64,000 nucleotides of DNA from an uncultured Clostridia bacterium (lineage in GTDB: Bacteria; Bacillota; Clostridia; TANB77; CAG-508): contig CAKPPF010000002.1 in assembly GCA_934177485.1 (NCBI GenBank), positions 75,188 through 139,187 on the forward strand. The letters are read 5' to 3'. Positions 3,291 to 64,000 of this stretch are shown one piece after another. The notes beneath the pieces are model-generated. The model searched no databases. It saw nothing but the letters and a program-made list of their open reading frames with translations, and had not been told where the DNA came from. The position numbers and the translations under genes are program-made. Within the stretch, counting starts at the first letter, position 1, and each line of letters starts with the position of its first letter.

Positions 3291-4214
3291 ATGCCAAGAA
3301 CTACAAAAGAAGCAAAAACAGAAAATTTAAACAAAGAAGAAACTATTGCAAAGAGTGCTAAAGCTAAAGCTAGTTCAACTACTAAAAAGGCTACAAAAAC
3401 TACTACTTCCAAAGTCAAAAAAACTTCTACAAAAGCATCTTCAAGTAAGTCTAATACTTCTACAAAAAGCACAAAAAAGAAAAGTGCTAGTAGTACCGTT
3501 TCTAAAAAAAGTTCATCTGCTACGACAAAGAAAGCATCAACTAAGAAAAGCACTACTAATGCTACAAAAAGTACAACTAGAAAAACAAGATCTACTAAAA
3601 GCGTAAAAAAATTAGAAGAAAATATTGTTGCTGAATACTATGATTTGCCTTATAGATATAATGAAACAATAGTTAAAATACTATATCAAACTCCAAATGT
3701 ACTTTTTGTTTATTGGGACATTTCAGATTACGATAGAAATAAATTTATTAATGAATATGGAGAAAATTTCTTTAATAATACTGTACCAGTATTAAAGGTA
3801 TTTAATTTAACTAAAAATTATAGTTTTGAAATTGAAATAAATGACTTTGCTAACAGTTGGTATATACATGTAAATGATGCTAATTGTGAATACAAAGTTG
3901 AACTTGGTCGTAAAACAATTAAATATGAAGAAAATATTCATAATGATTATCTTTACATTTCTTCATCTAATGATATTGAATTTCCAAATGACCATATCTT
4001 ATTAGATGAATTACCAAGTAAAGTTAATTTTAGAAATGTAAAAACAAATGAAATTCATACTAAGGATATATCTACTTTACGTTTAATTGGAATTAATAAG
4101 ATATATAAAGTTTATGATTTTTATAAAAGATTTTTCAAAGATGAATTGTTAGAAGATTTAAATACAAATAAAAAGATTATAAACACATCTTCATCCTCAT
4201 CTTCTTGGAATTAG
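3291..4214 (+). CDS. DUF4912-type protein with a ~105 aa Lys/Ser/Thr-rich basic N-terminal tail
   Basis: 307 aa with an AAGGAGG RBS. The C-terminal half (EYYDLPYRYNETIVKILYQTPNVLFVYWDISD...) matches the DUF4912 pattern, a family that typically sits next to GH57 genes. The N-terminus is low-complexity K/S/T/A. Confidence 0.6.
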   Translation: MPRTTKEAKTENLNKEETIAKSAKAKASSTTKKATKTTTSKVKKTSTKASSSKSNTSTKSTKKKSASSTVSKKSSSATTKKASTKKSTTNATKSTTRKTRSTKSVKKLEENIVAEYYDLPYRYNETIVKILYQTPNVLFVYWDISDYDRNKFINEYGENFFNNTVPVLKVFNLTKNYSFEIEINDFANSWYIHVNDANCEYKVELGRKTIKYEENIHNDYLYISSSNDIEFPNDHILLDELPSKVNFRNVKTNEIHTKDISTLRLIGINKIYKVYDFYKRFFKDELLEDLNTNKKIINTSSSSSSWN

Positions 4215-4221
4215 AATATTA

Positions 4222-4244
4222 GGGCAGGCACAACAACCTGCCCC
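4222..4244. repeat. GC-rich palindromic element, copy a (GGGCAGGCACAACAACCTGCCCC)
   Basis: Perfect 7-bp arms GGGCAGG/CCTGCCC in an otherwise AT-rich spacer. It is related to the copies at 28512, 30914, 58461 and 60564. Confidence 0.6.
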
Positions 4245-4276
4245 TACAACGTATTAAATAAATTAAGGAGTTACAA

Positions 4277-5866
4277 ATGAAACAAATAAACGGATATGTA
4301 AGCTTCGTTTTACATGCTCACCTTCCATTTGTTCATCACCCGGAAAGTGAAGATTATTTAGAAGAGCAATGGTTATTTGAAGCTATTTCTGAAACATATA
4401 TACCATTATTATTAAATTTCAAAAAATTAGAGGACGAAAAGGTTGATTTTAGAATTACTATGTCAATGACTCCTCCTCTTCTTTCTATGTTAGACAACAA
4501 ACTATTGCAAAAACGTTACATTAAATATTTAGAAAAGCATATTGAGCTTTGTAAAAAAGAACTTGAGCGTACAAAATATGATGAAAGATTAAATAGTTTA
4601 TCTAAATACTATTTTGATAGATATTCAAATGATTTGCACATATTTAAAGATGTGTATAATTGTAATATTATACACGGTTTCAAACATTTTCAAGATATTG
4701 GCGTATTAGAAATAATAACTTGTGGTGCAACACATGGTTTCTTCCCTATTTTATTTGTTAATGAAAAAACTGTAAGAGCACAAATTGCTGTTGGAGTTCA
4801 GACTTATGAGAAATATTTTGGAAGAAAGCCACGTGGTATTTGGCTTCCAGAATGTGGTTATGTACCAGAGGCTGATAAATATCTAAAAGAATTTGGCATT
4901 GAATATGTTATAACTGAAACGCATGGAATTTTATATGCAAACCCTACCCCTATTTATGGAACTTGTAGCCCAATAGTTTCTCCTGAAGGAGTTGTTGCTT
5001 TTGGTAGAGATTTAGAATCTTCTCGTCAAGTTTGGAGTTCTATAAATGGTTATCCTGGAGATTATAATTATAGAGAATATTATAGAGATATTGGTTATGA
5101 CTTAGATTACGATTACATTAAACCATATATTGCTTCTAATGGTGTTAGAGTTCCAACAAGCATAAAATATTACAGAATTACTGGTAAAGATTGTGAAAAA
5201 GATTATTATAATCCTCAATGGGCTTTAGATTCTGTATATAAACAAGCTGGTCATTTCTTTGACTCAAGGCAGGCTCAAATAAATAATATTGCACCTTATA
5301 TGGATAAACCACCAATTATATTATGTCCTTATGATGCAGAGCTTTACGGTCACTGGTGGTATGAAGGTCCATTATGGCTTTATACTTTATTTAAAAAAAT
5401 TTACTATGATAAATGCAACTTTGCTTTAATTACACCTGGCGAATACATTGATAAATATCCAGAAATGCAAGAATGTACACCATGTCGTTCTAGTTGGGGT
5501 GCTAATGGATACAATGGTGTATGGCTTAACGAAACAAATGATTATGCTCATAGACATTTACATAAAGCCGGAGATAGAATGGTTGAACTTGCTCATCTAT
5601 TCCCTAATGAAAACAACAAATTAAAAAAAGCTGCATTAAACCAATGTGCTCGTGAATTATTGCTTGCGCAGAGTAGTGACTGGTTATTTATAATAACAAA
5701 TGGAACTATGGTAGATTATGCAAAAAAAAGAATAAAAGACCATATTGGTAGATTTACAAAGTTATATTATGCTTTAAAAAATAATGAAATTGATGAAAAA
5801 TTCTTAAAAGATATTAATAAAAAAGATCCTATATTCCCAGATATAGATTACATGATATATTATTAA
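4277..5866 (+). CDS. GH57-family 1,4-alpha-glucan branching enzyme (DUF1957-containing)
   Basis: 529 aa with an AAGGAG RBS. The N-terminus GYVSFVLHAHLPFVHHPE and the later CPYDAELYGHWWYEG are characteristic of GH57 branching enzymes. Confidence 0.8.
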   Translation: MKQINGYVSFVLHAHLPFVHHPESEDYLEEQWLFEAISETYIPLLLNFKKLEDEKVDFRITMSMTPPLLSMLDNKLLQKRYIKYLEKHIELCKKELERTKYDERLNSLSKYYFDRYSNDLHIFKDVYNCNIIHGFKHFQDIGVLEIITCGATHGFFPILFVNEKTVRAQIAVGVQTYEKYFGRKPRGIWLPECGYVPEADKYLKEFGIEYVITETHGILYANPTPIYGTCSPIVSPEGVVAFGRDLESSRQVWSSINGYPGDYNYREYYRDIGYDLDYDYIKPYIASNGVRVPTSIKYYRITGKDCEKDYYNPQWALDSVYKQAGHFFDSRQAQINNIAPYMDKPPIILCPYDAELYGHWWYEGPLWLYTLFKKIYYDKCNFALITPGEYIDKYPEMQECTPCRSSWGANGYNGVWLNETNDYAHRHLHKAGDRMVELAHLFPNENNKLKKAALNQCARELLLAQSSDWLFIITNGTMVDYAKKRIKDHIGRFTKLYYALKNNEIDEKFLKDINKKDPIFPDIDYMIYY

Positions 5867-5893
5867 AACACTAACCATAATGGTTAGTGTTTT
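5865..5893. terminator. Bidirectional rho-independent terminator between convergent genes
   Basis: AAAACACTAACC-ATAA-TGGTTAGTGTTTT is a perfect hairpin flanked by A and T runs. Confidence 0.7.
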
Positions 5894-6948
5894 AATTTGT
5901 CATTTTCTTCTTTTTTTATTTCTTCATGATATATTTTAGATGAGTTATTCCAAGTTTCATATTCTTTATCATTTTTTCTATTTTTTATATTGTATTTTTC
6001 TTGTATTATTTTTCCCAAGTATTTACTTACTTTTTCTGCACCATATACGTTTAAGTGATCACCTTCGTCTGCAGTATCTGTCTTCCAATCAAATCCAAAT
6101 TCCTTATAATTTAAATTCATATCAATAAACTCTAATCCTTGTTCATCTGCGAATTCTTGTGTTTTATTACTTAAATAATATGACCATGATTCTGCAGATG
6201 GTAATTCAATTAAAAGTAATTTTATATTATTTTTTTCACATAGTTTTATCATCTTTTCAAGATATTTAGAGCATTTAGGTCCAATCTCTTTTTCTGGTCT
6301 CTCCTCGTTCATGTAATTTTCTGCATTATTAAATGGTTTTATATCTATATTTAAGTCCATTCCTTTTAAGTCATATTTTTCTATTTTAAATGCATTTATA
6401 AAGTCTTCATCGCTTAACTCAGACCATCTTGAATGAAATCTTGCTATCGGGAAAAAGTATGTTAATATTTCTTTTTTCTTAAACTTGAATGCTTTATCAG
6501 TAACTGCTTCAATTTTATTCTTACTAAACTTCAAATTATCAAATACTTTTCTATAATTGCTTTCACTACATTCGCTTTCATTAAATGCTGAGTCCATATT
6601 TAGCACTATTAATTCAGGCTTTTGGTACTTAAGACATTCCTCCATCAAATAATAGGCCGTCCACATTCTTTGACCAGAAGATGCAAAATCATAACTTACT
6701 ATTCCATACTCATCCCATAATGTTATTGGTGATATTCCTCTATATACATCACTATTTCCCATAAAAACAACATCAACAGAATTTTTAGGTTCTTTATACA
6801 AACCTTTTATTATATACGACATTCTATTGTCTTCTGCAGTTATCCATTTTGGTACAAATATTTTTGTTATAATACTTAATAATAAATATCCTATTAGTAA
6901 AAAGCATATTATTTTAATTATTATTTTTTTATTCAGTTTTTCTTTCAT
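5884..6948 (-). CDS. Membrane-anchored SGNH/GDSL-type protein, DltD-like last gene of the dlt-like operon
   Basis: 354 aa with an N-terminal TM helix. It has a GDS(L)-like block (FMGNSDVYRG) and a distal DxxH (DEGDHLN). It lies directly downstream of the MBOAT gene. Confidence 0.55.
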   Translation of the reverse strand: MKEKLNKKIIIKIICFLLIGYLLLSIITKIFVPKWITAEDNRMSYIIKGLYKEPKNSVDVVFMGNSDVYRGISPITLWDEYGIVSYDFASSGQRMWTAYYLMEECLKYQKPELIVLNMDSAFNESECSESNYRKVFDNLKFSKNKIEAVTDKAFKFKKKEILTYFFPIARFHSRWSELSDEDFINAFKIEKYDLKGMDLNIDIKPFNNAENYMNEERPEKEIGPKCSKYLEKMIKLCEKNNIKLLLIELPSAESWSYYLSNKTQEFADEQGLEFIDMNLNYKEFGFDWKTDTADEGDHLNVYGAEKVSKYLGKIIQEKYNIKNRKNDKEYETWNNSSKIYHEEIKKEENDKLKH

Positions 6949-11385: not shown

Positions 11386-11577
11386 GTTAAATTTAGGGTG
11401 GCATGTAAGGTTATGCCTTATACATGCCATTTTTCTGTATCTACATACATAATGTTGTATATTGTTATAATTTAAGTAAGTACAATTTTAAAAAAAATTC
11501 ATCTTAAAACAAATAAAATAATTTTACATATTTAGAATTTTATGATATATTTTTCTTATATTATAAGGAGAATATAT

Positions 11578-12243
11578 ATGTCTAGTTTTACTTTAAAAAT
11601 AATCGCCCTAATTTCAATGCTTTGTGACCACTTAGGATATACAATTTGGGGTCAATTTAGTTTTATGAATTATTTTGGTAGAATAGCATTCCCTATATTT
11701 GCTTTTTGCATAACAGAAGGATATGTGCATACAAAAAATATAAAAAAATATTTTTTAAGATTAGGAATTTTAGCAATAATATCACAAATTCCATATATGC
11801 TTTTTGAAAGTACATTTTTAAATAATATTAATTTAAATATTATTTTCACTTTAATGTTAGGACTTTTTACAATATTGTTGTATGATAAATCTAAAAATAA
11901 ATTATTAGGTTTGATACTAACTATATTGCTTGCATGTTTTGCTCAATTCTTCTATTTTGATTATGGTTGGTTTGGAATAGCTATTATTTTTATTTTTTAC
12001 ATTTTTAAAGATAATAAACCATTTATGAATTTATCTTTTATTTTAGCAACTTTTGCAAATTATTATTACATGTTTTTAAGAACATCAAGATTTGAATATC
12101 TATTTATTATATTCTTTGCTTGTTTGTCTTTAATTCCAATAAACTTATACAATGGTCAAAAAGGGAAAAATTCAAAATATTTGCTTTATGTTTTTTACCC
12201 ATTACATTTTATTGTTCTTTACTTAGTATCTACTTTTATTTAA
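11578..12243 (+). CDS. TraX-family membrane protein
   Basis: I chose the start at ATG 11578 because it has an AAGGAG RBS; the track ORF starts earlier. The sequence FTLKIIALISMLCDHLGYT...GRIAFPIFAFCITEGYVHTKN is typical of TraX. Confidence 0.7.
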   Translation: MSSFTLKIIALISMLCDHLGYTIWGQFSFMNYFGRIAFPIFAFCITEGYVHTKNIKKYFLRLGILAIISQIPYMLFESTFLNNINLNIIFTLMLGLFTILLYDKSKNKLLGLILTILLACFAQFFYFDYGWFGIAIIFIFYIFKDNKPFMNLSFILATFANYYYMFLRTSRFEYLFIIFFACLSLIPINLYNGQKGKNSKYLLYVFYPLHFIVLYLVSTFI

Positions 12244-47433: not shown

Positions 47434-48810
47434 TTAAATTTTTTCAGCCAGTCCAAGGTATTTTTCTGGAGTTAGGTTTAATAATACCTGTTTATCATCA
47501 GTTGATAATATGTCTAAGCCTTGTACAAATTCTTGTATAGCTTCTTTTGAAATATTTTTTCCTCGTGTAAGTTCTTTTAATTTATTGTATGCATCAGGAA
47601 TTCCATATTTTCTTAAAACTGTTTGAATTGGTTCTGCAAGTACTTCCCACCTATTTTCTAATTCACTAGAAAGCTTAAGTTTATTAACTTCTATTCTTTT
47701 TAATGCACTTATAGTTTGATTTATTGCTTGAATTGAATATCCAAATGCTAACCCAATATTTCTTTTTGAAGAAGAATCTGACAAATCTCTTTGCATTCTT
47801 GATTTTACAAGTTTATTTGAAAGCGCCATGAAAATCGCATTAGACATATCAATATTAGCCTCGCTGTTTTCAAATCTTATTGGATTTACTTTATGTGGCA
47901 TTGTACTACTACCTACTTCACTTTGTACTGGTATTTGTTTAAAATATTCCATGCTAATATATAACCACATGTCAACGTCAAAATCTAGAACAATATTATT
48001 AAAATGTCTTATGCCATCAGCAATATGTGCAATGTAGTCATGCCCTTCTATTTGAGTTGTTAGAGGATTAAATTCTAGTTGTAAATATTCTTCTACAAAT
48101 TTTTTTGATAATTCCTCCCAATTGTATTTTGGAAAAGCAACAGATATTGCTGCATATGTGCCAGTTGCTCCATTAAATTTTGCAGTAATTTTAATATTCT
48201 TTATATTTTCTAAAGATTTCTTTAACCTATATTCATATACTTTAAACTCTTTTCCTACTGTTGTTGGAGTAGCTGGCTGTCCATGAGTATGTGCAAGCAT
48301 TGGAATATTTGAATTGTCTTTTGCTAGCTTACTAATCACATCAATTAAACTTTCTGCTGATTTTATCCATACATCATTTAATCCTTTTTTTATCATATTT
48401 CCGTATGAAGTATTATTTATATCTTCAGATGTACAACCAATATGAACAAAACTAACCAATTTATCAAAACCTATCTTTTTTAGTTCTTCTCCAACATAAA
48501 TTTCAGCCGCTTTAACATCATGGTTTGTTATTTTATCTATTTGTCTTATTCTTAAATATGACTCCTCTGAAAAATCTTCATATATTTTTAAGATCTTACT
48601 AATGTCTTTCTCTTTTATTGAATTTAAAATGTCTGAATCTTTAATATTTTCAATTAAAAATTTAAGCCAAAGCACTTCAACTTTAACCCTGTTTTTAGTA
48701 AGTACATATTCTGAAAAATATGGACTTAGCTGTTTAGATATATCTAAATATCTCCCATCTAACGGGCATAAAGCCATAAAGCTTTTTAATTCTAGATTTT
48801 CATTTTCCAT
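47434..48810 (-). CDS. purB: Adenylosuccinate lyase
   Basis: 458 aa with the signature GSSTMPHKVNPIRFEN. Confidence 0.9.
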   Translation of the reverse strand: MENENLELKSFMALCPLDGRYLDISKQLSPYFSEYVLTKNRVKVEVLWLKFLIENIKDSDILNSIKEKDISKILKIYEDFSEESYLRIRQIDKITNHDVKAAEIYVGEELKKIGFDKLVSFVHIGCTSEDINNTSYGNMIKKGLNDVWIKSAESLIDVISKLAKDNSNIPMLAHTHGQPATPTTVGKEFKVYEYRLKKSLENIKNIKITAKFNGATGTYAAISVAFPKYNWEELSKKFVEEYLQLEFNPLTTQIEGHDYIAHIADGIRHFNNIVLDFDVDMWLYISMEYFKQIPVQSEVGSSTMPHKVNPIRFENSEANIDMSNAIFMALSNKLVKSRMQRDLSDSSSKRNIGLAFGYSIQAINQTISALKRIEVNKLKLSSELENRWEVLAEPIQTVLRKYGIPDAYNKLKELTRGKNISKEAIQEFVQGLDILSTDDKQVLLNLTPEKYLGLAEKI

Positions 48811-48890
48811 ATATTTCTCCTTATTTTCTTATATGCTTAAATTCTAACATAAGTAAAAAAATATAGCAAGAATAAATTTTCCACAAAATA

Positions 48891-48923
48891 AACCAGCCTA
48901 AACTTGGCACGTTCCTTTTCGAG
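48891..48923 (-). repeat. 33-nt fragment of the tRNA-Leu-associated module (distal island boundary)
   Basis: AACCAGCCTAAACTTGGCACGTTCCTTTTCGAG is identical to the interior of module A (49627-49659). Similarity is lost on both sides. Confidence 0.7.
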
Positions 48924-49222
48924 CCTTTTAAGGGTTTTAATACTTATTGTTTTTTTTGTATTAATTACCATTCTTTAAAATCCCTAAAATCAATGCATTT
49001 TCGTATAATATCTCTGTTAAATAAATAATACTATATTTTAAATTTTTTTTGCAAGATTTTTGCAAAAATATTTGATATTAGTTAGATATTTTTTGTTATA
49101 GCAGATAATCTACTATTGATATTAAACAAATTAATTGATGTATTAATCTATAGAACAAATTTTTGTTTTTTATGATTTACACTTGATTTTTATATAATAA
49201 TCAAGTATACTTCTATTCATAG

Positions 49223-49429
49223 ATGAGAGAAGCAAGATGTGGTGTATCGTATCCTACAGCGAGAGGAGGCGATGCATATTTATTAGAACAAGTTTATTTA
49301 CTTTTTATATACATACTTTTTATTGAACTTGCAATAGTAACCGTTGTAGCTATTGCCTTATTTGTAGCATTGGTTGTTACGATGAGAAAATTAGACAACG
49401 AAAAAAACACATCTCTGTTGGATCGTTAG
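49223..49429 (+). CDS. Candidate small hydrophobic peptide (type I toxin-like); start codon uncertain
   Basis: The ORF ends ...LFIELAIVTVVAIALFVALVVTMRKLDNEKNTSLLDR, a TM helix followed by a charged tail. A TTGATT-17-TATACT promoter lies at 49183-49211. A 30-nt 5' segment (49221-49250) is complementary to 49458-49489. An internal AGGAGG is present, but no in-frame canonical start follows it. Confidence 0.3.
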   Translation: MREARCGVSYPTARGGDAYLLEQVYLLFIYILFIELAIVTVVAIALFVALVVTMRKLDNEKNTSLLDR

Positions 49430-49552
49430 AGATGTATTCTTTATAAAAATACTTTGAACGATACGCCACATTTCTGTGGTATCTCATCTTTCTACAATTA
49501 TTATACTCAAAATATATAAAAAAGTCAATAATTTATAAATTTTTTCATCAAC

Positions 49553-49740
49553 TGGTGGGTCCACTCGCACCCGCGTCACAAAAATAGTCCACCGGACTAT
49601 TTTTACCTGCGTTTAGTCTGGCCTTGAACCAGCCTAAACTTGGCACGTTCCTTTTCGAGTCCCACCTTTTTACTTTATACAAAAAATGTAACCTACAAGG
49701 TTACATTTTCTCTGGTATGATTGTTGTAGTTATCTACAAC
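49553..49740 (-). repeat. tRNA-Leu-associated module, copy A
   Basis: It contains the 113-nt structured core, the hairpin AAAAAATGTAACCTACAAGGTTACATTTT, and a degenerate tRNA 3'-end relic (CTGGTATGATTGTTGTAGTTATCTACAAC). Confidence 0.8.
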
Positions 49741-50089
49741 TCTATTTCTCTTATATTGATACAAACATCAATCAGTTTTATTGTATATACATTATCAAAT
49801 TATTTAAAATTTTTCATGATATTTTTAGTATTAATTGCAATATGGTTTAATTTGTATTTATTATCTTTATACATAAAAATATAGTCATTAAATCAAATGT
49901 ATTTAATTGCCTATCTAATTTTATAATTTCTTTTACTTCTTTAATTGCAGAAATAATATGAAAAAATGCTGGAATAACACCAAGTAAATCCCCTTACAGC
50001 TCCTATATATGCACCAAATACACCTGGAAGCACTGAAGATTTTTCATTTTTTTCTTCTTCCATTTCAACAGATTTTCTATTGTTTCATT

Positions 50090-50950
50090 TTAATTATCAC
50101 ACCAGTAAAGAACCTTTGAAAAGTCTCCTCTTTTTAAATCTTCGTTATTAATAAAGAAAAAGAAAACAACATCAGTAGTAGTACTATATTGAAATAAAAG
50201 GGTATCATATCTTTTTAAATTTTCTCTACCTCTTGGGTCATCTTGCCAAAACAATGGATAGCCTAATAATTTGTCACCATGTGAATCATAAATTGTTTCC
50301 ATAACTTCATCTCTGTATTCTTCTTCAATACTAGACAATTCTTCCTTAATAACATCTTTTTCTATGTCGTTGTAATTATATATTCTGCTTTGCATTATAT
50401 CTGTAGATTTTTTAAAACTATATGCTGTACTTTCATCTATTAGATTTGATTTAGGTAAATCAAGTTTTAAAATTTCTTCTTCCTTTATATCATAATTAAT
50501 TTTTGGATGATAAACTATTCTCCAATTTTTTTGTGAGTCCGGATTATCAAAGTCAAGCCCTAATAAATTATCAGTCCCAATAAAAAATTGTAACATTCCT
50601 TCATTTGGAAATTCTCCACCTTCAAATTTTTCGGTATCAAAGTTAATTTGAGTCATCATAAACAATTTATTACCATTTTCATCTGTTGGATATTCTTCTT
50701 TTAAATCCCAATAAGGTGTTCCTCCGTCTTTGGTTGAAAAAATTGTTGTTTCTTTATCACTTTCAGTTGATACATATGCTGTAATTTCTGTTTTCTTACC
50801 TATTTCTTTGACATAATTTTCTAATTCAACTTTTCTTTCTAGTGAAATTTCTTTATACCTTTTGTTACTTCTTAAATTATTAAGTTTTTTATCTTCTGAA
50901 TTCTCTTTATTTTGTACATTACCATTTTTAAAAAAATCAAATAATCCCAT
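50090..50950 (-). CDS. DUF1963 / YwqG-family protein (immunity-protein-like)
   Basis: I chose the start at ATG 50950, which has a GGAGGA RBS. The sequence LFMMTQINFDTEKFEGGEFPNEGMLQFFIGTDNLLGLDFDNPDSQKNWRIVYHP and the C-terminal LLFQYSTT...VVFFFFINNEDLKRGDF..VLYWCD match the YwqG pattern. Confidence 0.75.
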   Translation of the reverse strand: MGLFDFFKNGNVQNKENSEDKKLNNLRSNKRYKEISLERKVELENYVKEIGKKTEITAYVSTESDKETTIFSTKDGGTPYWDLKEEYPTDENGNKLFMMTQINFDTEKFEGGEFPNEGMLQFFIGTDNLLGLDFDNPDSQKNWRIVYHPKINYDIKEEEILKLDLPKSNLIDESTAYSFKKSTDIMQSRIYNYNDIEKDVIKEELSSIEEEYRDEVMETIYDSHGDKLLGYPLFWQDDPRGRENLKRYDTLLFQYSTTTDVVFFFFINNEDLKRGDFSKVLYWCDN

Positions 50951-51015
50951 TATTAATTCCTCCATATTTTGTTTGTACAAATTATATCATTTATTATTCA
51001 ATATTACTATATTTT

Positions 51016-51180
51016 TTAATTGTATTTTTTTAGTTTTTTATTCTTTTCTTTTTCTAATTGTATCAAACTCTTTTTAGGTGTTGGTAAGTTTTTTGGCATA
51101 GTTCCACTATTTTTTGCAATGATTTCTCTAATATTTTTTTCAAATATTATAATGAGTTTTATTTGCTTCTTTTTCAGTTT
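51016..51180 (-). pseudogene. 3' remnant (about 54 codons) of a DinD-like DNA-damage-inducible protein gene
   Basis: My own translation gives ...NIREIIAKNSGTMPKNLPTPKKSLIQLEKEKNKKLKKYN*, which resembles the DinD C-terminus (..ELGGTMPEELPTPQVSIKQLE). The frame is cut exactly at the edge of module B. Confidence 0.45.
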
Positions 51181-51377
51181 GTACCGATGGTGGGTCCACT
51201 CGCACCCGCGTCACAAAAATAGTCCACCGGACTATTTTTACCTGCGTTTAGTCTGGCCTTGGACCAGCCTAAACTTGGCACGTTCCTTTTCGAGTCCCAC
51301 CTTTTTACTTTATACAAAAAATGTAACCTATAAGGTTACATTTTAATCTGGTACGATTAGTGTAGTAGTTTACAACC
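51181..51377 (-). repeat. tRNA-Leu-associated module, copy B
   Basis: It starts GTACCGATGGTGGGT (a copy of the tRNA 3' end). The core is near-identical to copies A and C. The terminator hairpin is followed by the relic CTGGTACGATTAGTGTAGTAGTTTACAACC. Confidence 0.8.
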
Positions 51378-51528
51378 AATCACCAACAATGAATAGTAAT
51401 ATCAATCACTAATAATAGTATAACATATTTTTTAGGATATGAATCATTTTTTTTGCATATTTAGTATTAATTATTCATATAGTTATTTTGATTCTATTTG
51501 TCCAAAATATTAGCCTATTTTTTACTTT

Positions 51529-52203
51529 TTATATAGCATAAACTTCTTTATTATTTGAGTCGCAAATTCCAATTATCTCATTATTCTTTATAATAGCCAT
51601 TGCTCCAACTGGTAAGTTTAATATTGCTATTCCCATTGGACAAATTTTTAATAGTTCGTACATTTTAATTGTTGTATAATCTTCTGGATTATTTGACTTA
51701 TCTTTGTCATCTAGATTACCCATATACCACCCGGAATCATTATCTTGTTTCTTTACTTGCTTTTCAAAATATAAATTATTTGATTTTAATGCTGTTTTTT
51801 TAACAAATATTGTATCTTGAAATGATATTGCTTCATCTGATATTAAACCTGTCTTTTTTGTTATTAAAAGTTGATTTTTCATAATATCTAGCGACAATGT
51901 TAAATCTTCTGTAAAGTCTTTAAAAGGATCTTCTTTATAATTGACTGCAAATATTTGGAATTCATTATTAATCTCTTTAATTTTATAAAAGTTAAAGCCT
52001 ATTTGTATTATCTTATTATCATCTATAATATTGTATTTATCATCTTGTGTAGTCAATGTTTCTTCAAATAAATTCACTATATCTTCAGTAGTATTATGAT
52101 AAAAAAATACTTTTTTGCCATTTATATTTATTTCTGTTTTATTCATATAACTATTCCTTTCCTTTTTTTCTACATTATTATTTTTCTTATTAAAAAATCC
52201 CAT
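51529..52203 (-). CDS. Hypothetical protein, DUF2185/Imm33-like C-terminal domain (immunity-protein-like)
   Basis: 224 aa with an AAGGAGG RBS. The C-terminal DSGWYMGNLDDKDKSNNPEDY...PVGAMAIIKNNEIIGI recalls the DSGW motif of the DUF2185/Imm33 families. This is recognised by motif only. Confidence 0.4.
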   Translation of the reverse strand: MGFFNKKNNNVEKKERNSYMNKTEININGKKVFFYHNTTEDIVNLFEETLTTQDDKYNIIDDNKIIQIGFNFYKIKEINNEFQIFAVNYKEDPFKDFTEDLTLSLDIMKNQLLITKKTGLISDEAISFQDTIFVKKTALKSNNLYFEKQVKKQDNDSGWYMGNLDDKDKSNNPEDYTTIKMYELLKICPMGIAILNLPVGAMAIIKNNEIIGICDSNNKEVYAI

Positions 52204-52299
52204 AATTGTTCCTCCTTACACATAGTATAACACATGAACCCTTATTTTAATATATATTTTCAATGAATATAAGTGATATTTACAAATATGCTTTACAAT

Positions 52300-53168
52300 T
52301 TATCTATAAAAATCATCTTTTTCTTTTTCACCATTTATTTTGTTATATTCTTTTTTATCTATAATATCATTCATATATAAATCATTAGTTACATCTTGGT
52401 ATTTTTCTTTATCTCCAAATAATCCTTTTACTTTATCACTTATATGGTTTATAATCTTTTCAAATTTTTCTTTCCAATATTCTAACTTTTCTTTTAATTG
52501 CTCTATTTTTTTTTAGTGATGATATTTCTTCTTCTTTTTCATCTAGTTCTGATTTTAAATTTCTTATTTCATTATTTTGATTTTTTATTTCTTTATTAAG
52601 TTCATCTATGTACTTGTGGTTTTCTTCAAAGTCTTCTTTTATTTTATCTACTGATAATGAGTAATTTGTAATCTCTTTAAAGTCATTATTTGATTTATTT
52701 ACTTCTTCTATATAGTCTAATATTAAATCTTTATTTTTATTATATAAAAGTAAGTTCTTATTTGATAGAGGTTGATTTTTTAGATTATTAATAATATCTC
52801 TTATTTCTTCTGATTTGGTATTTAATTTATTTGTTTGATTATTTAGTTTGTTTATTTTTTGTCTTTGTTTATTATAGTTTTTCTTTAATTCATTATAGTC
52901 TTCCATTTGACTTACTCTATAATCAATATTTCTTCCTTTTTGTTTTTCTTTTAATACTGCATTTAAGCCATATACTTTATTAAATGAGTTAATACATCTT
53001 TCTCTCATTTTATCTTGTATTTTAGGTAGATTATCTTTTGTAAATACACTACATTTTCCTACTTGTTTTTTCATACCTGTTTTACAATTTTCTTTTACTG
53101 CAACACCTACTATATGTAGATGTGGTGAAGCCTCATCAAAATGTATGGTTGCGTTAGCTACTTTAAAT
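52300..53168 (-). pseudogene. Mob/Pre (MOBV) plasmid-recombination relaxase, 5'-truncated and frameshifted
   Basis: It retains the HxDExxPHxH motif (IHFDEASPHLHIVGV) but lacks the ~120 N-terminal residues, being cut at module C. The frame breaks at the T9 run at 52506-52514. The alternative frame continues as LKKIEQLKEKLEYWKEKFEKIINHISDKVK... to the stop at 52300. Confidence 0.7.
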
Positions 53169-53339
53169 TCTGGTACCGATGGTGGGACCACTCGCACTCG
53201 CGTCACAAAAATAGTCCACCGGACTATTTTTACCTGCGTTTAGTCTGGCCTTGGACCAGCCTAAACTTGGCACGTTCCTTTTCGAGTCCCACCTTTTTAC
53301 TTTATACAAAAAATGTAACCTACAAGGTTACATTTTCTC
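53169..53339 (-). repeat. tRNA-Leu-associated module, copy C (abuts the intact tRNA)
   Basis: TCTGGTACCGATGGTGGGAC at 53169-53188 is an exact 20-nt direct repeat of 53338-53357 (tRNA 3' end plus flank). The structured core is at 53181-53293, and the tRNA terminator hairpin is at about 53306-53334. Confidence 0.85.
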
Positions 53340-53422
53340 TGGTACCGATGGTGGGACTCGAACCCACATGGTTTCCCGCTGGATTTTGAGTCCAGTGCGT
53401 CTACCAATTCCGCCACATCGGC
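53340..53422 (-). tRNA. tRNA-Leu (anticodon CAA) with encoded CCA
   Basis: The minus strand reads GCCGATGTGGCGGAATTGGTAGACGCACTGGACTCAAAATCCAGCGGGAAACCATGTGGGTTCGAGTCCCACCATCGGTACCA. The cloverleaf has a 7-bp acceptor stem, anticodon stem CTGGA/TCCAG with loop CUCAAAA, a long variable arm and a GTGGG-TTCGAGT-CCCAC T arm. Confidence 0.9.
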
Positions 53423-53498
53423 TTATATAATTATTGGACGCATTTTTTCTGCGTCCATGTTATATTAACATATTTTAATTAAAAAAACAAGTTTATTT

Positions 53499-53921
53499 TT
53501 ATTTTTCCTCAATTTTTAATATTCTTTTTTCAGTGTTTGCATCATCTTTGCATATTGTTATAGTTGTGTAATGTTCTGGAAGTGCTTCTTTTATTATATC
53601 TCCCCATTCTATTATACATATTCCTTTTGAAAAATATTCTTCTCCACCTATTGCATAGAACTCATCTATGTCTTCTAATCTATACACATCAAAATGAAAT
53701 ATTGTTGCATTTTCATTTTTATATTCGTTTACTATTGTAAATGTTGGACTCGATATTTCATTTTCTAAGCCAAAATATGATAGAAATCCTTCTGTAAATT
53801 TTGTTTTTCCGGCTCCTAATTCTCCATTTAATATTATTACAGAATTATTTGTTGTTTTTGATGCAATTTCTTTTGCTATATTTTTTGTTTCTTGTTCTGA
53901 GTATGTTATTATTTCTTTCAT
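53499..53921 (-). CDS. tsaE: tRNA threonylcarbamoyladenosine biosynthesis ATPase TsaE
   Basis: 140 aa. LNGELGAGKTKFTEG...SPTFTIVNEY...HFDVYRL. Confidence 0.85.
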   Translation of the reverse strand: MKEIITYSEQETKNIAKEIASKTTNNSVIILNGELGAGKTKFTEGFLSYFGLENEISSPTFTIVNEYKNENATIFHFDVYRLEDIDEFYAIGGEEYFSKGICIIEWGDIIKEALPEHYTTITICKDDANTEKRILKIEEK

Positions 53922-62683: not shown

Positions 62684-63310
62684 TTATAATACATTTTTAT
62701 AGTATTCACATAGCATACATTGTCCATATTTTTTTGTATATTCTATATTATCTTTTAAACTTTTATTATTTAATGTAAATGCTTCTTCTATTTTTCCAGT
62801 TAATATCTTTTCATTAAAATTTTCTTTTAGTCTTGCTAATATAGCATTCATTTTGTCTATAAAAATATTACCTATGGGATTAATCATTTTCCAAGAGCAT
62901 AAGTAAATATTTCCTTCAATATCTAGGAAAAAATATGGATTTTCTTTAGTTTTTTCTGTATTCATACAATTTCCTTTTTTTATATTTTTTTTAATTTTAC
63001 TTAATTGATTTAAAGCTAATTCATAGTCTTCTCTGCTCAATGTTTTTTTAGCTAATTCCACATTATATAATTTTTGTATGTTATCAGTACAAACAAAAGA
63101 ATGTTTTAAATCATCGAAAACTGGTATTCCATCAATTATATTATTATTTTTACTAGCTAAAAAAAACTTTTCAATTATATTTTTATTATTATCCATGTGA
63201 ATACGACATATATAATTCTCATTAAAAGGCATATATTCTATAATATAATAGTTCTTGTCTAAAATTGTTATATAATTACCTTCTTCATTTAGAATAAAAG
63301 GGTTATTCAT
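62684..63310 (-). CDS. Hypothetical protein; the N-terminal half is paralogous to the adjacent DUF402-like protein, with an extra C-terminal domain
   Basis: 208 aa. NYYIIEYMPFNENYICRIHMDNNKN parallels NYFIVEVLPKNENYTMRIYFNEKKE in the neighbouring gene. I do not recognise the C-terminal ~90 aa (ends GQCMLCEYYKNVL). Confidence 0.4.
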   Translation of the reverse strand: MNNPFILNEEGNYITILDKNYYIIEYMPFNENYICRIHMDNNKNIIEKFFLASKNNNIIDGIPVFDDLKHSFVCTDNIQKLYNVELAKKTLSREDYELALNQLSKIKKNIKKGNCMNTEKTKENPYFFLDIEGNIYLCSWKMINPIGNIFIDKMNAILARLKENFNEKILTGKIEEAFTLNNKSLKDNIEYTKKYGQCMLCEYYKNVL

Positions 63311-63408
63311 ATCTATTATTTTTTTTATAACTAAACAAAAATTTCTTTCAATAAATATAGAAATTCTATATTTTTCTATGTCTTTTAAATAAGTGCTAGT
63401 TAAATATT

Positions 63409-63915
63409 TTATATTAAATATTTCTCCAAATCTAATTGCATATATTTATTGCTATTATTTTTTATACTTTGTAATAAATTTTCCTTAGTTTCATTAGCTA
63501 ACTCAAATTCTTCATTTGTTATTTTGTTTGTATCAAGAGCTTCTTTCAATTCATCTTCATCTAATATTTCAATTTTTTCGTTTTCAATAGTAATATCAGT
63601 ATATAAATCATCATAATATGGAATTTTACTTTCTTCGTCGATGCCATTTTTAAGGCTTATATCAAAATAATATCCCAATCTTTCTTTCTTTTCATTAAAA
63701 TAAATTCTCATTGTATAGTTTTCATTTTTAGGTAACACTTCAACAATGAAATAATTATTATCAATTAAACAAAGTCCAGTTGGAAGTACAAAAGGTTCAT
63801 TAGTATGTATAATCTTTTTTATTGCAAGATAATAATCATTATTATCATAATAAATATCTAATCTGTACTTATCAACATCTCTTAAATATGTTTTACTAAT
63901 CAATTTCTTTCTCAT
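63409..63915 (-). CDS. DUF402-like protein (putative nucleoside di/triphosphatase fold)
   Basis: 168 aa. The segment ...GYYFDISLKNGIDEESKIPYYDDLYTDITIE... fits the DUF402 pattern (Y.D..LD). Called by motif only. Confidence 0.5.
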   Translation of the reverse strand: MRKKLISKTYLRDVDKYRLDIYYDNNDYYLAIKKIIHTNEPFVLPTGLCLIDNNYFIVEVLPKNENYTMRIYFNEKKERLGYYFDISLKNGIDEESKIPYYDDLYTDITIENEKIEILDEDELKEALDTNKITNEEFELANETKENLLQSIKNNSNKYMQLDLEKYLI

Positions 63916-64000
63916 CTTCTATTTTTCCTCTTTTCTTTTTTATTCTATTACTTTCTATTTTGTAATCATATACATTATTATCTACAATCACATGGTATGT
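63896..64000 (-). CDS. 3' end of an unidentified gene entering from the right edge
   Basis: My own translation gives ...TYHVIVDNNVYDYKIESNRIKKKRGKIEDEKEID*. Its stop overlaps the start of the next gene by 20 nt, which suggests translational coupling. Confidence 0.3.
   Translation of the reverse strand, partial: TYHVIVDNNVYDYKIESNRIKKKRGKIEDEKEID

Follow-up and report, generated by a model that had tools for sequence, protein, structure and literature searches.

Integrative and mobilizable elements (IMEs), integrative conjugative elements (ICEs), together with their decayed, cis-mobilizable derivatives (CIMEs), accumulate in tandem at the 3′-ends of tRNA genes (Pavlovic 2004; Bellanger 2011; reviewed in PMC5704250). 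The published model of this accretion consists of integration, decay, and new integration into the retained attachment (att) copy, and those IMEs that the review tabulates as targeting tRNA genes have integrases of the tyrosine type (PMC5704250). Described here is an array of this kind that follows a tRNA-Leu(CAA) gene of an uncultured human-gut Firmicute, within a stretch of 64,000 nt (the window; contig CAKPPF010000002.1, G+C content 27%). The tRNA gene (53340-53422, minus strand; called by ARAGORN and scoring 62.3 bits with the Rfam tRNA model) is bordered on one side by tsaE (53499-53921, minus strand), the fixed proximal flank, and on the other by purB (adenylosuccinate lyase; 47434-48810, minus strand), the fixed distal flank of the array. 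The kind of array is already known from IME and CIME accretion; its new part is a conserved, tRNA-matched module.

Read in tRNA orientation, each module consists of a terminator hairpin, a spacer of ~15 nt, a structured core of 113 nt and a copy (O2) of the last ~18-20 nt of the tRNA. As in IME and CIME accretion, elements appear to have integrated at copies of the target 3′-end, decayed to the loss of integrase and transfer genes, and left att copies that were reused, giving tandem arrays without an integrase per unit and with contents that vary by strain. Unlike the described cases, the att copies here end a structured, conserved 113-nt module that is not part of the IME, is tandemly amplified and occurs alone in other species, and integration depends on a large serine recombinase whose targets are the CCA ends of many tRNAs and of transfer-messenger RNA (tmRNA).

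Integrons, and clusters of attC sites lacking integron integrases (CALINs), share with the array a primary site at the proximal end, which in this case is the tRNA end, with structured sites of ~110 nt recurring behind it that open with an inverted and close with a direct copy of the primary site, extrahelical bases in the stem, variable genes between sites and, as in CALINs, no local integrase. The 113-nt core has the attributes of integron hairpins (57-141 nt, extrahelical bases, inverted ends), a likeness of form alone. IntI is absent, as are R and L boxes; no RYYYAAC/GTTRRRY pair occurs on either strand of 48801-53500, and no single such site in any module. At least two of the 'cassettes' are self-contained decayed IMEs with their own att ends, and the genes of the array lie on the tRNA strand, except for a small open reading frame (ORF) in cassette A, yet are not obviously promoterless. 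The integron resemblance proposed in a first-pass annotation, made from the letters alone, holds for form and not for independent, cassette-borne sites, because the modules are near-identical local tandem duplicates that include a host-native terminator and spacer. Integron-like capture by the module itself is conceivable.

Another likeness is to the form of CTX phage, and of integrative mobile elements exploiting Xer (IMEX), that is integrated by XerCD at dif. Its attP(+) consists of two inverted target copies ~90 nt apart that form a bulged stem mimicking the duplex target; because each integration restores a site that can be used again, elements accumulate in tandem. The core also has inverted target copies that would fold to a bulged stem mimicking a duplex target, which here is a tRNA T arm and 3′-end rather than dif, and the single-stranded role is suggested by sequence. 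Clusters of the rAID type (recombinase-associated acquired interbacterial defence) in gut Bacteroidales are arrays of orphan immunity genes associated with a recombinase. Here too a gut bacterium stocks orphan immunity-type genes (Imm33-like and DUF1963/YwqG-like) between repeated intergenic sequences, but without an adjacent recombinase, in another phylum, with tRNA-derived repeats and with only two such genes.

A strain-variable array at copies of the tRNA-Leu(CAA) end

The last 18 nt of the tRNA with 2 flanking nt (53338-53357) constitute the repeated sequence, designated X or O. The exact 20-mer TCTGGTACCGATGGTGGGAC is found in the window at 53169 and 53338 only, with shorter versions at 51181 (GTACCGATGGTGGGT) and 49552 (CTGGTGGGT), as had been described from the letters. 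Sequence comparison bears out the three modules of ~170-183 nt: the copies of a 183-nt repeat (family D1) at 49527-49709, 51162-51344 and 53154-53336 are 89-93% identical, a 33-nt fragment at 48891-48923 is 100% identical to the interior of module A, and a 31-nt word of the core has four matches in the window versus none expected from 100 shuffles. Direct repeats of the target 3′-end bound the units: O (53338-53357), O2 (53169-53188), the partial copies at 51181 and 49552, and the attR copies TCGTACCAGAT and TCATACCAGAG.

All modules lie on the minus strand. Module C (53169-53339; covariance-model match 53169-53294, 159 bits) comprises a terminator hairpin (53310-53336), spacer (53294-53309), core (53181-53293) and O2 (53169-53188). 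Module B (51181-51345; 156.9 bits) has its terminator at 51318-51344, its core at 51189-51301 and a partial tRNA-end copy, ATCGGTAC (51181-51188). Module A (49554-49710; 155.2 bits), with terminator 49683-49709 and core 49554-49666, has lost the tRNA-end copy and reads CCCACC^AGTTGATG at the junction (marked here and below by a caret). The 48891-48923 fragment, also on the minus strand, is an interior piece of a terminal core that abuts the purB promoter, and its truncation point is common to all strains of the species, cassette-free ones included. Between the modules are cassette C (51346-53176, minus strand), cassette B (49711-51180, minus strand) and cassette A (48924-49553, with no single coding strand).

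Other strains of the species, retrieved by their exact TsaE protein, differ in the tsaE-purB interval; samples that carry the species include ERZ27287352 and ERZ4559398. One (L014) is the same as the window, with 4688 nt and three cassettes; L015 and L018 (2696 nt) have cassettes B and A only and lack module C and cassette C; L016 and L017 (1062 nt) have cassette A only; L021, like L013, has modules and no cassette in 596 nt; and L020 and L023 (325-374 nt) have the tRNA, terminator, spacer and a truncated core, again with no cassette. The cassette-number variation predicted by the first-pass annotation is thus present. Full units range from 0 to at least 3 per strain at the tRNA-Leu site and from 1 to 2 at a second site behind tRNA-Phe (below), and the last unit is always truncated. 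The L015 tRNA leads straight into a module-B-type unit, and the switch lies inside the 12-nt tRNA end, not in the 170 nt of module homology. A sister species (L051 and others) has an identical tRNA followed by the terminator only, with no covariance-model match to the module, and this is a true empty site of the kind that was to be sought in relatives. Its terminator aligns with that of the module (score 31 versus 15.1 +/- 4.2 for shuffled sequences; 4 of 1000 shuffles reach 31), and therefore the terminator and spacer are host-native and the core with O2 is the added part. The array is accordingly strain-variable with its junctions at tRNA-end copies, which bears out the proposal of a site-specific accretion array; in no relative were the same modules seen with intact, full-length flanking genes and without strain variation.

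Two of the cassettes are remnants of IMEs whose serine recombinase integrates at CCA ends. The family was found through the gene contexts of a MobV relaxase (P0003) and of the adjacent recombinase, for which a homologue search returned 6128 proteins at E <= 1e-20. Intact members (L032-L038) are ~5 kb long and encode a 90-aa ORF, a 646-aa large serine recombinase (PF00239 and PF07508), a MobV protein of 425-446 aa and a 205-aa ORF, and are inserted after ...CACCA^ at tRNA-Leu(TAG), tRNA-Leu(GAG), tmRNA (two loci) and a pseudo-site. The left end, TTGACGAATC..., is followed by the element's own terminator and the 90-aa ORF. The right end has the pattern GTTATACTAT..AGTGATTGATAT..GTTGTAAAC..CACCA (also read as ...GTTATACTATATATAGTGATTGATAT...GTTGTAAACCACTTCGTCATTCGCACCA^) and is homologous to the sequences that precede modules B and A. 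The form that defines the family, ...GTTGTAAAC...(T/C)C(G/A)(C/T)ACCA^ followed by the target's downstream sequence, is present at 51346-51426 and 49711-49775 (compared with L024 and L034-L037). The right end of cassette C (51346-51426, minus strand), with an oriT-like (origin of transfer) attR P arm, ends ...CTAATCGTACCA^GATT, reading ...GTTATACTATTATTAGTGATTGATAT...GGTTGTAAACTACTACACTAATCGTACCA^GATT just upstream of module B; that of cassette B (about 49711-49775, minus strand) ends ...CAACAATCATACCA^GAG, reading ...CTGATTGATGTTTGTATCAATAT...GTTGTAGATAACTACAACAATCATACCA^GAG just upstream of module A. These stretches are attR P arms, each followed by the tRNA's own downstream sequence. The module order of hairpin, core and tRNA-end copy given in the first-pass annotation stands, and what it took for an AT-drifted relic of the tRNA is a conserved IME right end.

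The right end of cassette B was compared with those of L024 and L034; cassette C also shows 80% blastn identity to the intact IME L034 from window position 53176, a point within O2. Module C is abutted by a 5′-truncated mob gene (52460-53176) that keeps about 60% of a MobV (Mob_Pre) relaxase, its C-terminal part, and matches residues 152-363 of P0003 (425 aa) at 82% identity. At this boundary the window's GTACCAGAATTTAAAG translates as V-P-E-F-K, matching Mob (VPDFK in L024), and an 8-nt microhomology, GTACCAGA, serves both as tRNA end plus flank and as the Mob codons V-P-E. The gene was correctly seen to be cut at the module edge, and the cut appears exact because the junction falls in this microhomology. 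A deletion therefore joined O2 to the internal GTACCAGA microhomology or pseudo-att site (GTACCAGAA), removing the 90-aa ORF, the recombinase gene and the 5′ part of mob. No IME left end (own terminator and 90-aa ORF) and no serine recombinase gene are present in the window array, so that cassettes C and B are remnants of IMEs, not working members. None of the 49 window ORFs scanned against Pfam, all of them housekeeping genes or cargo, has a phage integrase or other recombinase domain, and no recombinase adjoins a module in loci L001-L023 and L041-L050. The reported lack of a local recombinase is therefore real, but it is no longer a puzzle, since intact relatives encode the 646-aa serine recombinase and the gene has been deleted from the remnants.

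The account favoured for the tsaE-purB interval, with a probability of about 0.6, is that elements accreted in tandem and decayed at additional copies of the tRNA-Leu(CAA) 3′-end. The tRNA with its native terminator evidently gained a unit of ~130 bp, namely the 113-nt core and the direct copy O2 of the last ~18-20 nt. The unit of tRNA end, terminator, spacer and core is bounded by the direct repeats O and O2, and could therefore expand and contract by unequal recombination in the manner of a minisatellite; the same exchange between O and O2 would homogenize O2 with the tRNA. Serine-recombinase/MobV IMEs, which elsewhere are inserted at ...ACCA ends, would here have entered O2 copies, because attL reads as core-O2^element and attR, consisting of the element right end with ACCA^GA, precedes the terminator of the next module. 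The recombinase gene and the 5′ part of the relaxase gene would then have been lost through deletions anchored at the att copy, as cassette C suggests at GTACCAGA, leaving as cargo the Imm33-like and DUF1963 proteins and a toxin-antitoxin (TA)-like pair. By itself such an array mostly follows known IME accretion and decay and needs no new mechanism. The 113-nt element multiplies the landing sites behind the tRNA, and the large serine recombinase, landing on the generic ...CACCA of several tRNAs and tmRNA, has a broad and potentially programmable choice of target.

The 113-nt core and its tRNA-matched stem

The core is predicted to fold into a closing stem, P1 (GGUGGG-ACUCG paired with CGAGU and CCCACC, the latter two separated by a GGU bulge), a long hairpin, P2, and a perfect 11-bp hairpin, P3. 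The structure noted in the first-pass annotation is supported by folding energies: the 181-nt stretch of module C, tRNA terminator hairpin included, folds as RNA at -69.4 kcal/mol (z = -7.0), and the core with O2 folds as single-stranded DNA with z = -5.9. P1 has 11 bp and is composed of an inverted (Y) and a direct (X′) copy of the tRNA T-loop and T-stem. Its 5′ strand (Y; 53281-53293 in module C) is the exact reverse complement of the T-loop and the 3′ strand of the T-stem. ARAGORN and the Rfam tRNA model call no cloverleaf in the modules, only the 3′ strand of the T-stem and acceptor being copied.

Comparison of the window with the modules of two other species (L001 and L002) gives identities of 96% in the core, 89-90% in the tRNA and 60-69% in the terminator plus spacer; when L001 is compared with its orthologous locus L002, the values are 95.5% (core), 98.8% (tRNA) and 59% (terminator plus spacer). 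Conservation of the core begins exactly at the first G of P1. From these figures the core is under strong constraint, and purifying selection of this strength implies that it probably acts either as a single strand in folded form or as a site bound by protein. The Leu family shows no double changes; its only changes are single ones compatible with G·U pairing on the tRNA-sense strand. Three runs against Rfam 15, among them permissive ones on short inputs, gave no match to the module (best other scores 7.6-18.8 bits versus gathering thresholds of 35-137), and the plasmid, phage and viral collections contain no match. The core appears to be a previously undescribed element, separate from the IME.

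Several origins and roles considered for the module were rejected. ORFs of 44-48 aa that cross the core are not frame-conserved between its Leu and Phe versions. Derivation from the IME was examined by local alignment of both versions with both IME ends on both strands; as these alignments are no better than shuffles (z -1.4 to 1.9), a shared GCGGGTG heptamer is taken as chance, and carriage at the IME left end is contradicted by intact IMEs, which have a left end of their own and zero covariance-model matches. An 18-nt logic like that of a retroviral primer-binding site, with identity from after A58, applies to module C and fails for modules A and B and the Phe version. Mimicry of the anticodon by the P2 loop (UUCAAGG, which contains CAA) is not kept in L001 or in the Phe version.

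Scans with exact 20-mers, which detect near-identical copies only, placed the module in just 3 other species-representative genomes ('uncultured Clostridium sp.') and in 10 metagenome contigs. In these three gut species, which are known from metagenome-assembled genomes and comprise UMGS1616, UMGS1640 and SRR14474046_bin.38, the module is always directly behind tRNA-Leu(CAA) and has no cassettes, and in two of the three it lies in a different context, upstream of mraZ. O2 follows the host's own tRNA (CCCACCGTCGGGACCA in L001, ...ATCGGGACCA in L002), and in each lineage a polymorphism of the acceptor 3′ strand is common to tRNA and O2 (L001 versus L002; L042 versus L043), a concerted pattern that unequal exchange between O and O2 would explain. 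The tRNA of locus L003 on contig CALYZR010000122, which ARAGORN does not call, has a 5′ acceptor strand, GCCTGAG, that does not pair with its 3′ strand, CATCGGT, of the window type, and this foreign 3′ strand runs continuously into the module, which suggests that the tRNA 3′-end may have been imported together with the module.

With a covariance model of the core (R1), a paralogue that has diverged but still scores 66.7 bits (E = 2e-16) was detected in strain L015, immediately behind tRNA-Phe(GAA). No other divergent copy came to light with R1 or R2 across the fetched loci, which amount to about 0.5 Mb. The search for further core copies that the first-pass annotation had proposed thus found some, with no recombinase adjoining them, and the module is linked to tRNA-Leu(CAA) or tRNA-Phe(GAA) rather than being a generic dispersed repeat. 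The Phe locus resembles the Leu locus and reads terminator, spacer, core′, tRNA-Phe 3′-end copy, then terminator and spacer once more, and finally a core that is truncated. One full unit is present in L042 and in L043 and two in L047, each time with a truncated unit in addition. The interiors of the Leu and Phe cores are homologous, with P3 and the junctions nearly identical and a compensatory change in P2 (A-U to C-G). Both strands of P1 are re-matched to tRNA-Phe, so that the 5′ strand is again an exact reverse complement (GTGGAATCGAA in Phe, GGTGGGACTCGAA in Leu), and the bulge is 1 nt long rather than the 3 nt of Leu. In the joint alignment seven pairs are changed on both sides, six of them in P1, which essentially constitutes a single Leu-versus-Phe event.

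In L041, the window's strain, the Phe module carries a three-gene cassette at the foot of P1 (...ATTCCAC^TTGAAT); the module matched to tRNA-Phe(GAA) lies on one side of it and the truncated partner of that module on the other, all upstream of pth. Its genes are the window ORFs at 62684-63915, and the cassette runs past the window end. The right end of the window (62684-64000; 3573-5900 in locus L041) thus belongs to a second array of this kind. The products are a 113-aa protein, a DUF402 protein and a 208-aa protein weakly similar to the DUF402 protein. The cassette is absent from L042 and L043, and its assignment as an IME remnant was rejected for want of similarity to the IME. Together with those of Leu cassettes C, B and A, its left junction makes four independent left junctions that fall in a span of 13 nt on the 3′ side of P1.

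Alternatives to accretion and decay

Some observations weigh against the accretion-and-decay account. No intact IME was found at tRNA-Leu(CAA) in the window species, integration into O2 is read from junction sequences only, and unequal crossing-over is an assumption. Neither cassette A nor the Phe cassette has an IME hallmark or, on its distal side, a tRNA-end copy of the attR type, and both need an extra deletion or a different capture mechanism. Accretion also leaves unaccounted for a core better conserved than the tRNA (96% versus 89-90%), and gives no reason for the exact inverted copy of the T-loop and T-stem in both Leu and Phe. Plain segmental duplication with random decay, in which duplications and deletions are non-specific and no site-specific step occurs, is disfavoured and very improbable. 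It would suit the tandem 1.x-copy structure at every locus and the truncation point of the terminal unit, which differs between species, but intact IME attR structures end precisely at ...ACCA^ and continue into the tRNA's own downstream sequence, the four left junctions are clustered, the L015 switch lies inside the tRNA end, and the same IME is found at the CCA ends of four other RNA genes. Hardly credible is an orphan guide RNA of an RNA-guided homing element (a CRISPR-associated transposon, TnpB or bridge-RNA system), with the core as scaffold and the 20-nt tRNA match as spacer. In its favour, a structured scaffold precedes 20 nt that match a target close by exactly, and the distance from tRNA end to core start is nearly constant (42-48 nt at five loci). 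Against it, that distance is the combined length of the host-native terminator and a short spacer, genes for a transposase, Cas or TnpB and transposon ends are absent from the surroundings of every copy, and Rfam gives no omega-RNA or tracrRNA match.

Two other proposals concern the core itself. It is unlikely, if worth entertaining, that the core is a structured non-coding RNA gene or part of one, transcribed with or just after the tRNA as a functional 3′ trailer, decoy or regulator, its 5′ strand being antisense to the T arm and its 3′ tail copying the acceptor strand, and that the array is a by-product targeted by elements that seek tRNA ends. The contrast in identity between core and adjacent spacer, the sharp conservation boundary at P1 and the very stable fold would fit an RNA, as would the substitutions, since all those within stems of a family yield G·U on the tRNA-sense strand and A·C on the opposite strand, P2 shows the compensatory change, and P1 stays paired in both versions despite six changed pairs. 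On the other hand, no promoter-like site is predicted upstream of the core, a terminator precedes it, the perfect P3 is itself terminator-like and termination there would drop the conserved 3′ strand of P1, no Rfam family matches, and the sister species with an identical tRNA and no module indicates that the module is not essential; the P1 covariation, being one Leu-versus-Phe event, could be mere copying from the tRNA gene. It is more doubtful still that the module is a site of the attC or CTX-phage attP type at which an unlinked recombinase captures and deletes cassettes at the tRNA. Folded single-stranded P1 (Y:X′, with its extrahelical bulge of 1-3 nt) would then re-create a duplex T-loop/T-stem half-site, and the ~90-nt interior (P2, P3 and junctions) might, by a similarly slim chance, be the platform of a tRNA-programmed hairpin recombination site whose P1 is rewritten for each tRNA. 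The order X...Y-interior-X′ parallels attI...R″-L″...L′-R′, Y is exact and the bulge present in Leu and Phe alike, both are predicted to adopt one and the same fold as single-stranded DNA, the cassettes that are not IMEs (Leu A and Phe) join exactly at the P1 foot (CCCACC^ and CCAC^), and the acceptor 3′ strand of L003, continuous with its module, would place the exchange 5′ of that strand, in the T arm. Yet neither the window nor the surroundings of any module hold a tyrosine or other recombinase, integron core sites are absent, the modules are local duplicates with a host-native terminator rather than cassette-borne, cassettes C and B are fully accounted for by the serine-recombinase IME, and hairpin feet are also generic hot spots of illegitimate deletion. 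If such a site were real, it would let Firmicutes capture, stockpile and delete cassettes at tRNA genes without a local integrase. If the element is functional in any of these ways, as landing pad, recombination site or RNA, it would explain strain-variable immunity and TA islands at tRNA loci of small-genome gut Firmicutes and add a new structured nucleic-acid family.

Cassette cargo and further rearrangements at tRNA genes

Cassette C encodes an Imm33-like protein (51529-52203, minus strand) and cassette B a DUF1963/YwqG-like protein (50090-50980, minus strand), both identified by Pfam scan and both of the polymorphic-toxin immunity type; no toxin gene lies nearby, and the array can therefore be regarded as a small store of orphan immunity genes. 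The truncated gene of cassette B (51016-51180, minus strand) has a weak match to a dinD-like C-terminus (NF008573, E = 8e-6, profile positions 241-279 of 288), so that of the two truncated genes first reported the mob assignment is firm and the dinD-like one weakly supported. Cassette A, which is carried alone in L016 and L017, has a strong near-consensus predicted promoter (TTGACT-17-TATAAT; 49528-49500, minus strand) whose short transcript is predicted to end at the terminator hairpin, and convergent with it a small hydrophobic ORF (49223-49429, plus strand; ...LLFIYILFIELAIVTVVAIALFVALVV...). The arrangement looks like a type I toxin-antitoxin pair, and no match to it was found in Rfam, Pfam or NCBIfam.

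The IME family is abundant in gut Bacilli (for example 7380-12330 of L034). Its attP contains a dyad, TTCGTCA-N10-TGACGAA, centred on GCACCA, and near the right end is a stretch, ATG^TTATACT, that looks like the nick region of the pMV158 oriT. Relatives that have decayed through internal deletions are frequent (L026-L031, L039 and L040), and in these Mob is truncated at varying points or the N-terminus of the recombinase is fused to the C-terminus of Mob (P0034 and P0035). One identical decayed copy occurs behind two tRNAs (Thr-CGT and Leu-TAG) with the same junction, GCACCA^CTAGTGAATC.

Other changes affect the same tRNA genes. The tRNA-Leu(CAA) of L022 (1960-2900) has the 3′-end ...CCCACCATCAGCACCA instead of ...ATCGGTACCA, with a resulting acceptor-stem mismatch; behind it come a different element, which has a terminator of its own and an HTH_26 gene, and then a PGI-domain gene and a TraX gene. 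By length and Pfam family the latter two may correspond to window ORFs 5884-6948 and 11542-12243, ~40-47 kb away; the 354-aa window ORF has no Pfam match at E <= 1e-4. A large rearrangement, a tRNA-anchored deletion or chimerism of the assembly could account for the arrangement. In L047 (383-700), upstream of the two full Phe-type modules, tRNA-Phe has other sequence in place of its 5′ half as far as the anticodon loop, and the replacement looks like the right junction of another anticodon-loop island. In the sister species (10424-20423 of L053 and of L059), the same tRNA-Leu(CAA) has a genomic island in its anticodon loop; the island encodes a tyrosine integrase of 399 aa, an excisionase-like gene of the HTH_17 family, a D5_N primase and a restriction-modification system of type I, and it supplies its own, different tRNA-Leu(CAA) gene.

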